A stretch of 64,000 nucleotides of DNA from an uncultured Acidimicrobiaceae bacterium (GTDB lineage: Bacteria; Actinomycetota; Acidimicrobiia; Spongiisociales; UBA5794), in the NCBI GenBank assembly GCA_964397045.1, contig CAYNHF010000021.1, forward strand, positions 17,653 to 81,652, in the 5' to 3' direction. Positions 34,107-37,129 of the stretch are shown here, one piece after another (the first letter of the stretch is position 1; every line of letters begins with the position of its first letter). The notes under the pieces are model-generated. The model saw only the letters and a list, made by a program, of their open reading frames with translations, ran no database searches and had not been told where the DNA came from. The position numbers and the translations under genes are program-made.

Positions 34107-35165
34107 GTGCACGCAAGCGACACCGCGCCGATTCGCCCGGAAGAGCGATTCGACGAGGAAGCCGTGGCCACGTATCTGCGTGATCATCTGCCCGAACGCG
34201 TGGGTCGAGATGGCGACATCGCCTTCGACCAATTTCCGGGCGGTGCAGCCAATCTGACCTACCGGGCGATCACGGAAGGAGGCGAGTACGTGCTGCGGCG
34301 AGCACCACTCGGTGAAGTGGCAGCCGGGGCCCACGACATGACCCGGGAGTTTCAGGTCCTTTCCCAACTCTGGCGGGCCTTTCCCAAGGCTCCACGTGCC
34401 TACCACCTGTGCGAGGACGGGTCGGTGATGGGCAAACCCTTCCTCGTCATGGAGCGTAGGCACGGTTGGGTTATCCGCAGCGAGTGGCCTCGAGCCTGGG
34501 CTTCGGACGATGCGGCGATTCGGAACGTGCTCGCCACTGATCTGGTGACCACGTTGGGTGAACTGCATCTCGTTGACCCTGACACGGTTGACCTGGGTCG
34601 ACTGGGTCGACCGGACGGCTTTGTCGCCAGACAGGTGGCGGGCTGGCGAGCACGGTGGGAAGCGGCACAGACCAGGCATGTCGACGACCTCGACGCGGTC
34701 TCCGGAATGCTCGAGACCTCCCTGCCCGAACCGCAGGCCGCAGCGTTGCTCCACAACGACTACAAGCTGGACAACACGATGGTGGGCGGCGGGGGAGAAG
34801 TTGTCGCGGTATTCGACTGGGACATGGCCACTCTGGGTGACCCTCTTGTCGACTTTGGCACCCTGTTGGCGTACTGGCCGGATCCGGACAGTCCCTCGTA
34901 CCCGGTCTTCGGCGAGCGGGCGGTAGCGCTGGCTCCGTACCTCTCGAAATCGGACGCGCGGCGCATCTATGCCCGGGTAACGGGGTTCGATGTCTCGGGC
35001 ATCGAGTTCTACGAAGGGCTCGCGTTGTACCGCATTGCGGTGATCATCGAGCAGATCTATGCCAGGTATGCGGCCGGTCAGACCACAGATGAACGCTTCG
35101 CCCGTTTCGAACCGGTGGCTCCCCTGCTCGGGGCTGCCGCCCGCAGGACGCTCGAGACCCGCTGA
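34107..35165 (+). CDS. phosphotransferase (APH/ACAD10-11 N-domain-like)
   Basis: GGAANLTY, AHDMTRE, LHNDYKLDN, FDWDMATLGDPLVD. Confidence 0.88.
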   Translation: MHASDTAPIRPEERFDEEAVATYLRDHLPERVGRDGDIAFDQFPGGAANLTYRAITEGGEYVLRRAPLGEVAAGAHDMTREFQVLSQLWRAFPKAPRAYHLCEDGSVMGKPFLVMERRHGWVIRSEWPRAWASDDAAIRNVLATDLVTTLGELHLVDPDTVDLGRLGRPDGFVARQVAGWRARWEAAQTRHVDDLDAVSGMLETSLPEPQAAALLHNDYKLDNTMVGGGGEVVAVFDWDMATLGDPLVDFGTLLAYWPDPDSPSYPVFGERAVALAPYLSKSDARRIYARVTGFDVSGIEFYEGLALYRIAVIIEQIYARYAAGQTTDERFARFEPVAPLLGAAARRTLETR

Positions 35166-35244
35166 CCGGCAATGCGCCTTCCGAGGTCCGGGGGCCGCTT
35201 CCGCCCGGTTGCCAAGGGGGGGGTCCGGGGGTACATTGGCCTCG

Positions 35245-35316
35245 ATGACGACGTGCCACCGCTTCTTTGCGTATCTCTTTACCGGGTCACTGGCCCGGGC
35301 AGAGACGACGCGCTGA
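35245..35316 (+). CDS. putative Phe/Tyr leader peptide MTTCHRFFAYLFTGSLARAETTR
   Basis: F-F-A-Y-L-F cluster (TTC TTT GCG TAT CTC TTT); TACATT 7 nt before its ATG; followed by a terminator-like hairpin. Confidence 0.7.
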   Translation: MTTCHRFFAYLFTGSLARAETTR

Positions 35317-35340
35317 ACCACGCCACAGCCGCCATCCGAA

Positions 35341-35376
35341 AGCCCGAAGCCAGCAGCGGCTTCGGGTTCTTGCATT
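35341..35376 (+). terminator. attenuator terminator
   Basis: AGCCCGAAGCC-agcagc-GGCTTCGGGTT then CTTGCATT, between the leader stop and the RBS of the 35405 gene. Confidence 0.7.
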
Positions 35377-35404
35377 CCCGGGCCGCCAGACCAGGAGCAC
35401 CATC

Positions 35405-36529
35405 ATGACCGAGAGCGGTCCCAGGGAGCCGACGCTCAAAAGCCATCGTCGGCCGGATATCGAAACCACCGTCGTTGCGGTTGGCAACGTCAGGTTTGGC
35501 GACGGGTCGTATCCGGTCCTTGCCGGGCCCGTTGCCGTCGAGAGCGAGGAGCAGATTCTGGTCACGGCTCGCTCCACCGTCGCATCCGGCGCCTCGGTCC
35601 TGCGCGCCGGCACGTACCGGGCGGAGACCTCTCCCTACCGATTCCCGGGCTTGGGAGAAGAAGGGCTGTGGCTGCTGGAACACGCCGGGCATGACACCGG
35701 GCTACCCACCTCGTCCGAAGTGCTGGAGCCGGGCCACGTTGATCAGGTGGCAGACCACGTTGATGTCATCGAGGTAGGGGCGGACAACATGGCGAACTTC
35801 GTTCTGTTGCGCGCAGCAGGGGCGACCGGCCTGCCGGTCATTCTGCATCGGTCTCCAGCCGCCACGATCGACGAGTGGCTCATGGCTGCCGAATACATCC
35901 TCGACGAGGGGAATGACCAGGTGGTGCTGTGCGAACGAGGGAGCAGGACCTTCGATCCGAGGACGTCAGACACCATCGACATCTCTGCGGTGCCGGTGGT
36001 GCAGCGCCTCAGCCATCTACCCGTCATCATCGATCCGGCGCCTGCTGAGGGCGGTCTCGACCTGTTGGCGCCGCTCGCCATTGCCGGCCGCAGCGTCGGC
36101 GCCGATGGCCTGATCGTCGCCGTCCACCCCGATCCCGATACCGCGAAGGCTGGGAATGGCAGCCAGATCACTCCGGCAGCATTCAGCAAGCTGATGGAGT
36201 CGCTGGGTATCCCGATGCTGCGGGACGAGATCGATCGCATCGACCGCGAACTCGTCAAGCTCGTCGCCCGCCGCCTTCACAGCTCCATCGAGATCGCTTT
36301 GATCAAAGCGGCGCGCGGCCTGTCCCTACGCACTCCGGCGCGCGAGGCGGAGTTGATCGCCGAGGCTCGAGGCGATGCCGAGCATCTCGGCGTCGATCCC
36401 GGCTATGTGGAGGATTTGATGCAGCTCGTCCTCGATCACAGTCGCAAAGCCCAACGCGCAGCACTCGTGGAAGTCGACGAGAGCCACGCGGCAGCTGAGG
36501 AACTCGCGGATGATGCCGGCAGTGACTAG
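35405..36529 (+). CDS. degenerate DAHP-synthase-like domain fused to a C-terminal AroQ chorismate mutase
   Basis: Collinear with aroF (TSPY.F.GLGEEGL, NMANF, EWL.AAEY, CERG, DISAVPV) but catalytic residues replaced; CM from ~36215: LRDEIDRID, ARR, IK, PARE, SRKAQ. Confidence 0.88.
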   Translation: MTESGPREPTLKSHRRPDIETTVVAVGNVRFGDGSYPVLAGPVAVESEEQILVTARSTVASGASVLRAGTYRAETSPYRFPGLGEEGLWLLEHAGHDTGLPTSSEVLEPGHVDQVADHVDVIEVGADNMANFVLLRAAGATGLPVILHRSPAATIDEWLMAAEYILDEGNDQVVLCERGSRTFDPRTSDTIDISAVPVVQRLSHLPVIIDPAPAEGGLDLLAPLAIAGRSVGADGLIVAVHPDPDTAKAGNGSQITPAAFSKLMESLGIPMLRDEIDRIDRELVKLVARRLHSSIEIALIKAARGLSLRTPAREAELIAEARGDAEHLGVDPGYVEDLMQLVLDHSRKAQRAALVEVDESHAAAEELADDAGSD

Positions 36530-36625: not shown

Positions 36626-37129
36626 ATGCAGTTGACCTCCGAGCCGACCGCGATGTCTCCCATTGAACTGGAGGCGAACGCGGCCCACCTGACTGTGGTC
36701 GACCGCGACGCGACCGACGACCTCGGCGCGGCCGCCGTGCTCGCCGAAGCTGAAGCAGAAGCTGACCGCATCCGAGCAGCCGCGAAACGCGACGCCCTCC
36801 AGATGTACAGCTCGGCGAGTACAGACGCTCGAGAACTCATCGAGAACGCACAGGCCGAGGCGGCGCAGATCATCCAGGCTGCTCGGGACGAAGCTGCTGC
36901 CGTCGCAGCGCCCGAGCCTGTAGCCGCGGTGCCGGCAGCGGAGACACGCCCGATGTCTCCCTACGACATTGTCGATGAAGCAGAGCCGGAGACGCCTTCA
37001 CCCTTCGACGAGCCTGAACGTGTCTCCAGGTATGCCAAGCACGCGGCTGAGATTCCCCACCTGGGCGAAGCAGCCGGCCGCGACGCGGTGGCTACTGCTA
37101 CGTCGTTGCGGGATCTGCTTCGCAGGTAG
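36626..37129 (+). CDS. short coiled-coil protein sharing a C-terminal motif with the 436-2436 protein
   Basis: AEAEAEADRIRAAA/AEAAQIIQAA repeats; SRYAKHAAEIPHLG...SLR. Confidence 0.7.
   Translation: MQLTSEPTAMSPIELEANAAHLTVVDRDATDDLGAAAVLAEAEAEADRIRAAAKRDALQMYSSASTDARELIENAQAEAAQIIQAARDEAAAVAAPEPVAAVPAAETRPMSPYDIVDEAEPETPSPFDEPERVSRYAKHAAEIPHLGEAAGRDAVATATSLRDLLRR

Follow-up and report, generated by a model that had tools for sequence, protein, structure and literature searches.

Our analysis provides strong evidence, drawn from comparative sequence data, for a ribosome-mediated transcription attenuator in a 64,000-nucleotide stretch of DNA from an uncultured Acidimicrobiaceae bacterium (GenBank assembly GCA_964397045.1, contig CAYNHF010000021.1). 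This whole stretch is called the window, its own numbering is used throughout, and all parts of the element and the regulated gene lie on the plus strand. The attenuator very probably senses charged tRNA-Phe and tRNA-Tyr by means of a leader peptide that would be translated from a leaderless mRNA, or from an mRNA with a leader of 0-4 nt. It precedes a gene (35405-36529) for a 374-aa protein in which a type I family 3-deoxy-D-arabino-heptulosonate 7-phosphate (DAHP) synthase carries a C-terminal chorismate mutase II domain (Pfam PF00793, 2e-53, and PF01817, 8e-19). This gene is referred to as DAHPS-CM; in its product the enzyme that opens the shikimate pathway is thus joined to the one acting at the branch point to Phe and Tyr. 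An earlier reading of the bare sequence (the original prediction) had proposed that pheL-type logic operates here on a leaderless transcript. That proposal is supported, and every structural prediction of the model is borne out by the comparative evidence. The mechanism is the textbook one known from trpL, pheL and pheM; the element itself is, as far as our literature search shows, a previously undescribed attenuator family in the mostly uncultured Acidimicrobiia.

The element consists of a promoter, a short leader open reading frame (ORF) and five RNA segments, which are numbered 1 to 5 and pair with each other as 1:2, 2:3, 3:4 and 4:5. In the mechanism that we infer from the sequence for transcription start, ORF translation, stalling and termination, a sigma-70-type promoter (TTGCCA-17-TACATT) would place the transcription start on the ATG at 35245 or immediately ahead of it, and the ribosome would therefore load directly onto the 5' end. 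When Phe and Tyr are plentiful, the ribosome would pass the six sensor codons (35263-35280) and reach the stop codon at 35314, so that segment 2 is either covered or re-paired with segment 1 behind the ribosome. Segment 3 would then be free, helix 3:4 would form and RNA polymerase would stop in the U-rich tail near 35370. Termination would likewise be expected if no ribosome loads. When Phe or Tyr is scarce, the ribosome would stall on the last Phe/Tyr codons with its footprint covering segment 1 (35282-35288). Segment 2 (35292-35300) would then capture the emerging segment 3 (35342-35351), no terminator would form and transcription would read through into the DAHPS-CM gene. Segment 5 would subsequently pair with the freed segment 4 and, less confidently, may keep the pyrimidine-rich segment 4 and the U tract off the Shine-Dalgarno sequence (SD) of the gene.

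The comparative analysis documents the parts of the element and shows them to be conserved. It also shows that helices 3:4, 2:3 and 4:5 covary, that the leader codons are biased in a frame-dependent way, and that these codons are linked to the regulated gene. A scan anchored on the protein and limited to a single genome for each species yielded 21 Acidimicrobiia orthologues with 45-74% protein identity. Promoter, ORF, hairpin, terminator and segment 5 stand in identical order in 21/21 of them, and the gene further upstream varies. A DNA-pattern scan of metagenome contigs, in which only TTTACCGGG, CCCGRAGC and GCTYCGGG were fixed and the ORF was left unspecified, returned 102 loci, about 85 with a Phe/Tyr-rich ORF at the expected place and 17 chance matches. 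In the 64-kb window the attenuator pattern occurs once. Removal of duplicates and selection for sufficient upstream DNA left 97 leaders for analysis. Of these, 91 (86 of them distinct) went into alignment A2, which runs from the beginning of the leader to that of the gene. Conservation of the Phe/Tyr cluster in orthologous leaders had been named as a check in the original prediction; the cluster and the arrangement around it are present again at each of the 21 orthologous genome loci and at some 85 additional loci from metagenomes, which, judged from sequence, exceeds chance.

The leader ORF of the window has 23 codons (MTTCHRFFAYLFTGSLARAETTR; 35245-35316, stop codon at 35314), and homologous ORFs of 14-24 codons are present in all related loci. 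Its sensor codons TTC TTT GCG TAT CTC TTT (Phe-Phe-Ala-Tyr-Leu-Phe, 35263-35280) form the F-F-A-Y-L-F run that had been noticed before in a 23-aa ORF at this place, and they are now backed by family-wide enrichment and frame-specificity. In the leaders 14.4% of the residues are Phe and 7.5% Tyr; the downstream genes have 2.0% and 1.2%, so that the enrichment is about seven-fold and six-fold, and Trp is not enriched. The aromatic residues cluster within a run of seven codons, directly 5' of segment 1, whose last is an invariant Phe (the anchor Phe). There are two to six Phe/Tyr codons in the seven codons before segment 1, three to six in 95 of the 97 leaders and two in the other 2. Within the 21 nt before the anchor Phe, 357 TTY/TAY triplets lie in the leader frame versus 10 and 79 in the other frames. 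Both the positions and the synonymous forms of the Phe/Tyr codons differ among leaders, and the residue class is kept. Such variation is not what an untranslated RNA motif predicts, and by this token the ORF looks translated and sensor-like. Analogous leaders were also looked for at the DAHP synthase genes of other phyla (L022-L080). Aromatic-rich windows were seen in 16/59 cases, but as these genomes are AT-rich and the frames arbitrary, the count says nothing for or against such leaders there.

The earlier remark that U-ending aromatic codons are unusually frequent holds in part. It stands for the last TTT, which is fixed because it lies inside the extended 1:2 stem, and for Tyr, where TAT (35272-35274 in the window) accounts for 53% of Tyr codons in the 97 leaders versus 21% in the downstream genes. 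It does not stand for the other Phe codons, which show no U bias (TTT 18% versus 15% in genes). The rarer Tyr codon may sharpen Tyr sensing, or its U may be structural.

These codon data bear directly on the view that the RNA is a ligand- or protein-binding element (a riboswitch, a T-box-like element or a TRAP-like protein site) next to an incidental, untranslated small ORF. Conservation of ACCGGG...CCCGGG at the nucleotide level, synonymous sites included, would be in line with such an element. Against it stand the in-frame Phe/Tyr codons with their varying forms and constant class, the start codon, which in 97/97 leaders lies a short and constant way from the promoter, and a codon content that tracks the regulated gene (see below). 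Past the simple alternative helices no conserved structured domain is seen. In Rfam, no leader family was found in 34900-35700 even at E up to 10, where four chance-level matches to unrelated families appeared, and six related loci scanned at the gathering threshold, among them leaders of pheS and chorismate mutase, gave no match. We therefore regard a ligand- or protein-binding element as highly improbable.

The promoter carries a -35 hexamer TTGCCA (35209-35214) placed 17 nt 5' of the -10 hexamer TACATT (35232-35237). The -10 hexamer, the spacing of 7 nt and the leader ATG at 35245 are as first described, and the -35 hexamer is added here by a promoter scan, which found one promoter-like site in 800 nt versus 0.1 expected. 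No SD lies between promoter and ATG. In 97/97 leaders exactly one in-frame start codon, ATG (86) or GTG (11), follows TANNNT by 6-11 nt. TACATT is the commonest -10 form among them, and about 90 of the 97 have TTGNNN 16-19 nt (mostly 17) 5' of the -10. Since the promoter-to-start gap is only 6-11 nt, an SD has no room before the leader ORF. The structural gene, by contrast, always has an AGGAG-like sequence 5-10 nt before its start; in the window this is AGGAG at 35393-35397, 7 nt 5' of the DAHPS-CM ATG. Such a layout is characteristic of actinobacterial mRNAs that are leaderless, and the promoter geometry points to the probable transcription start.

Segment 1 (35274-35288) is the 5' half of hairpin 1:2 and comprises CCGGGUC (35282-35288) and an outer arm UCUCU (35274-35278). 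Segment 2 (35292-35305) comprises GGCCCGGGC (35292-35300) and AGAGA (35301-35305) and can pair with either segment 1 or segment 3. The 1:2 hairpin CCGGGTC/GGCCCGG at 35282-35298, known from the original prediction, is found again with CCGGGUC paired to GGCCCGG (35292-35298), and it is extended by an outer 5-bp helix of UCUCU with AGAGA that takes in the last Phe codon. Hairpin 1:2 reaches -17.8 kcal/mol (z score -4.2), and 0/200 shuffles were as good. Its core (A2 columns 38-43/49-54) is 99% paired in the 86 distinct sequences, with few changes on both sides. Leaving aside its outer arm, segment 1 has its first base 2 nt beyond the last Phe codon, and it would therefore be covered by a ribosome stalled with a late Phe/Tyr codon in the A site, given the generally known size of the ribosome footprint.

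Under another reading the ORF would be kept for a functional small protein (conserved F-T-G...A-R-x-E...R), and the hairpin would simply be its terminator, with no sensing. The ORF is intact in all homologues, its FTG motif is nearly invariant across the family, and trans-acting leader peptides are known (peTrpL, PMC7298713). The constraint on FTG...AR, however, acts on the RNA, because the invariant codons (ACC GGG) form helix 1:2. The C-terminus varies, with the stop codon 4-13 codons past the anchor Phe across the family, and the element always lies directly 5' of Phe/Tyr-related genes. Furthermore, the alternative pairing 2:3 described below covaries, yet it would have no role in a small-protein model. 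We consider the chance that the ORF is kept for its protein product to be close to negligible.

The attenuator reading requires a terminator and a competing antiterminator, and both are seen in the alignment. Segment 3 (AGCCCGAAGCC, 35341-35351) is the 5' arm of the terminator and at the same time the 3' half of the antiterminator, and segment 4 (GGCUUCGGGUU, 35358-35368) is the 3' arm of the terminator. Their 11-bp stem has -20.5 kcal/mol (z -4.5), so that the terminator first placed at 35341-35368 is confirmed as a fold, though its U tract is weak. Across A2 (columns 113-122/131-140) 97.9% of cells are paired. Pair 118:135 is G:C in 50, A:U in 30 and G:U in 6 sequences and a mismatch in 0, which counts as evidence because the search pattern permitted all four combinations. 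The whole termination-state structure (1:2 plus 3:4) is 95.8% paired versus 55-64% when slid by one column.

In the antiterminator of the window, GGC.CGGGC (35292-35300) pairs with GCCCG..GCC (35342-35351). The pairing of CGGGC (35296-35300) with GCCCG (35342-35346) had been recognized before; with GGC (35292-35294) and GCC (35349-35351) there are eight pairs in all versus the five noted earlier. Helix 2:3 is 95.3% paired in A2 columns 52-56/113-117. Pair 56:113, neither column of which was in the search pattern, is C:G in 37, U:A in 31, U:G in 2 and other in 16 sequences (Fisher 6e-13). Column 113 changes at least nine times on a rough neighbour-joining (NJ) tree and thus does not reflect a single inherited event. 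A stalled ribosome was mimicked by masking everything from the 5' end through the tenth nucleotide after the last Phe codon, and the nascent RNA was folded without constraints as far as the end of segment 3; pairing with segment 2 took up 79% of the segment 3 bases in the window and 81% in the family average. The antiterminator 2:3 is mutually exclusive with the terminator and is supported by covariation as well as by spontaneous folding.

Six pattern matches precede genes other than DAHPS-CM. Four of these are pheS (PF01409 plus PF02912; L124, L155, L158, L167) and two are stand-alone chorismate mutase genes of about 100 aa (L097, L178), on metagenomic contigs. Tyr is present in 88/91 DAHPS-CM leaders versus 1/4 pheS leaders, and the pheS leaders have Phe codons without Tyr in 3/4 cases, e.g. 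MQHLPRRRFAFTGPGARADAS. Leader codon content tracks the regulated gene, and the codons therefore fit what each gene needs sensed. This apparent match between codons and gene is the strongest functional argument short of experiment, and it has a parallel in the E. coli pair pheL-pheA and pheM-pheST. In the 64-kb window itself pheS was not found.

The one feature of the element outside the classical attenuation scheme is helix 4:5. Segment 5 (CCCGGGCCGC, 35377-35386; family consensus CCYGGRGCC) resembles segment 3 and can form with segment 4 a hairpin at 35356-35386 (-17.2 kcal/mol, z -2.1 in the window). In A2 (columns 131-139/154-162) the helix is 90% paired versus 57-62% when slid by one column, and 0/500 shuffles were as good; pair 131:162 is G:C in 48, C:G in 13 and G:U in 8 sequences. 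The original prediction had instead linked segment 5 to segment 2, where GGCCCGGG (35292-35299) complements CCCGGGCC (35377-35384). This complement is present and perfect in the window. As a conserved feature, a 2:5 pairing was rejected: A2 columns 48-55/154-161 are only 77% paired, shuffles were as good in 71/500 cases, and a slide by +1 still gives 69%. It is segment 4 with which segment 5 conservedly pairs.

Helix 4:5 cannot influence termination, because it forms only once the polymerase is well past the termination point. Having no textbook role, the conserved helix raises the question of how termination and translation control combine. One answer would be that control is mainly or additionally translational, with alternative folds that open and close the SD at 35393-35397, as in the poly-Cys leaderless short ORFs of mycobacteria, and with segment 5 freeing the SD. 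The conservation of 4:5 and the covariation at 131:162, too far downstream for the termination decision, speak for it. So does constrained folding of the 86 leaders, in which the probability that the SD is unpaired is 0.40 with 3:4 and 0.56 with 2:3 under the same 5' mask (p 2.5e-10; 43 sequences up, 5 down). With segment 5 blocked the value falls to 0.29, because the freed segment 4 and the U tract pair with the purine-rich SD. A second layer of control would also be useful given the weak U tract of the window. On the other hand, the effect on the SD is modest and computed only, the local hairpin of segment 5 and SD in the window is not better than shuffles (z 0.42), segment 5 is missing from 3/4 pheS leaders, and most homologues have a strong U tract behind a covarying GC-rich stem, which argues for real termination. 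Translational control is thus a possibility that we hold with some reserve, and it is a second layer atop transcription attenuation that does not exclude the latter.

Because 4:5 is conserved and the computed opening of the SD is lost with segment 5 blocked, we tentatively propose that segment 5 may serve as a decoy by which read-through transcripts retain an open SD, a role the folding model makes conceivable rather than probable. Taken further, and equally short of an even chance in our judgement, the element could be a five-segment, two-level attenuator with the chain 1:2, 2:3, 3:4, 4:5, in which one stall on a leaderless mini-ORF would flip all helices, end termination and let 4:5 keep the SD open. 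One module would then serve the DAHPS-CM and chorismate mutase genes and, reduced to four segments, also pheS, as a Phe/Tyr 'ribulon' across Acidimicrobiia.

Several points weigh against transcription attenuation on a leaderless mRNA as outlined above. The U-rich tail of the window (UUCUUGCAUU, 35367-35376) is weak, with its first two U also within the stem. With 5 T in 9 nt versus 6-8 in most homologues it is among the weakest of the family, and a consensus terminator scan does not call the terminator of the window. Termination may here be inefficient or need help. In about half of the family, 9-11 nt separate promoter and start codon, and some transcripts therefore probably carry a 1-4-nt leader, not none. 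Most of the 91 aligned sequences were found by a pattern that fixes parts of segments 1, 3 and 4, so that evidence comes from the unfixed columns only, and the covariation counts are only roughly corrected for relatedness (rough NJ tree). A search for RNA runs holding the window gene found none. A compost relative (L148:3800-5800) is present in several metatranscriptome assemblies at a depth of 30-230; these contigs span promoter and terminator with flat depth, and 5' and 3' ends are not resolvable from assembled contigs.

In E. coli, the pheL-pheA and pheM-pheST attenuators (Rfam Phe_leader RF01859) control chorismate mutase and Phe-tRNA synthetase genes by tRNA-Phe charging. Together with C. 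glutamicum aroR-aroF they are the closest functional analogues of the element, by analogy of design. The E. coli leaders share with it a Phe-codon-rich leader ORF, the alternative helices 1:2, 2:3 and 3:4, and chorismate mutase and Phe-tRNA synthetase as targets. In contrast to them, the element has no match to an Rfam leader model, would be translated from the 5' end without an SD, mixes Tyr codons with Phe codons and targets the first enzyme of the pathway fused to chorismate mutase.

For C. glutamicum aroR-aroF, a Phe-responsive Phe-Tyr-Phe leader before DAHP synthase has been described (Neshat et al. 2014; PMC4046766, PMC11802643). Both systems are actinobacterial leaders with clustered Phe and Tyr codons directly 5' of a DAHP synthase gene, with ribosome stalling and transcription attenuation as the mechanism known there and proposed here. 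They differ in lineage (Mycobacteriales versus Acidimicrobiia), in the number of sensor codons (three versus two to six), and in the DAHPS-CM fusion, the use of the leader design also before pheS and stand-alone chorismate mutase, and the conserved fifth segment, all found here. The likeness is functional only and is taken from the literature description, not from sequence comparison.

The leaderless translation proposed here for a sensory ORF has parallels elsewhere in Actinobacteria. The mycobacterial poly-cysteine leaderless sensory short ORFs are reused across a pathway and act on translation (Canestrari et al., bioRxiv 10.1101/834739). Shared features are a sensory short ORF as first cistron, leaderless there and predicted to be so here, and one sensor design before several pathway genes (a 'ribulon'). 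Here, however, Phe and Tyr would be sensed and not Cys, and the main output appears to be a covarying terminator with a U tract, with SD unmasking at most a second layer. The leader peptide of C. glutamicum ilvBNC (ilvB) is made without a ribosome-binding site (Morbach et al. 2000, cited in PMC4046766), and a three-hairpin model has been given for it (PMC11857589). It resembles the element, as proposed here, in being an actinobacterial transcription attenuator whose leader peptide lacks a ribosome-binding site; it differs in sensing branched-chain amino acids and is unrelated in sequence. A 2005 survey of the Actinobacteria whose sequences were available at the time reported that Phe and Tyr genes had no RNA elements upstream (PMC1262725). 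The top-ranked full-text literature on leader peptides and attenuation did not mention Acidimicrobiia, and we found in it no RNA-level control of Phe/Tyr genes for this class.

For Acidimicrobiia, the element puts a testable regulatory annotation on the step at which aromatic amino-acid synthesis begins. The class belongs to the Actinomycetota, is large and mostly uncultured, and comes from samples of marine, sediment, soil and compost origin. It would extend leaderless ribosome-sensed attenuation beyond Corynebacterium and Mycobacterium, with a module common to DAHPS-CM, chorismate mutase and pheS. As three helices covary in it, our alignment of some 90 sequences could serve as the seed of a new Rfam family and so help to annotate metagenome-assembled genomes (MAGs) better.

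The closest genomes to the window are Acidimicrobiia MAGs, and DNA runs containing its sequence come from marine and marine-sediment metagenomes. The upstream neighbour of the element (34107-35165) is an APH-family phosphotransferase gene. Downstream, a 167-aa Ala/Glu-rich ORF without Pfam match (36626-37129, plus strand) starts 97 nt past the DAHPS-CM stop. Three related loci (L001:2700-2810, L002:2690-2800 and L007:2700-2810) have in common a conserved block of about 110 nt (..CATCACCGTTGCGCATCT.GTCCC...CTGACAAACG..), which lies 30-150 nt 5' of the leader promoter and has no Rfam family at gathering score. In another locus, from an Acidimicrobiia MAG (L018:2650-2830; JAOTYB010000020.1), two short tandem arrays, GCAGTAA (three copies) and then CCTATTG (about ten copies), stand directly 5' of the leader promoter.

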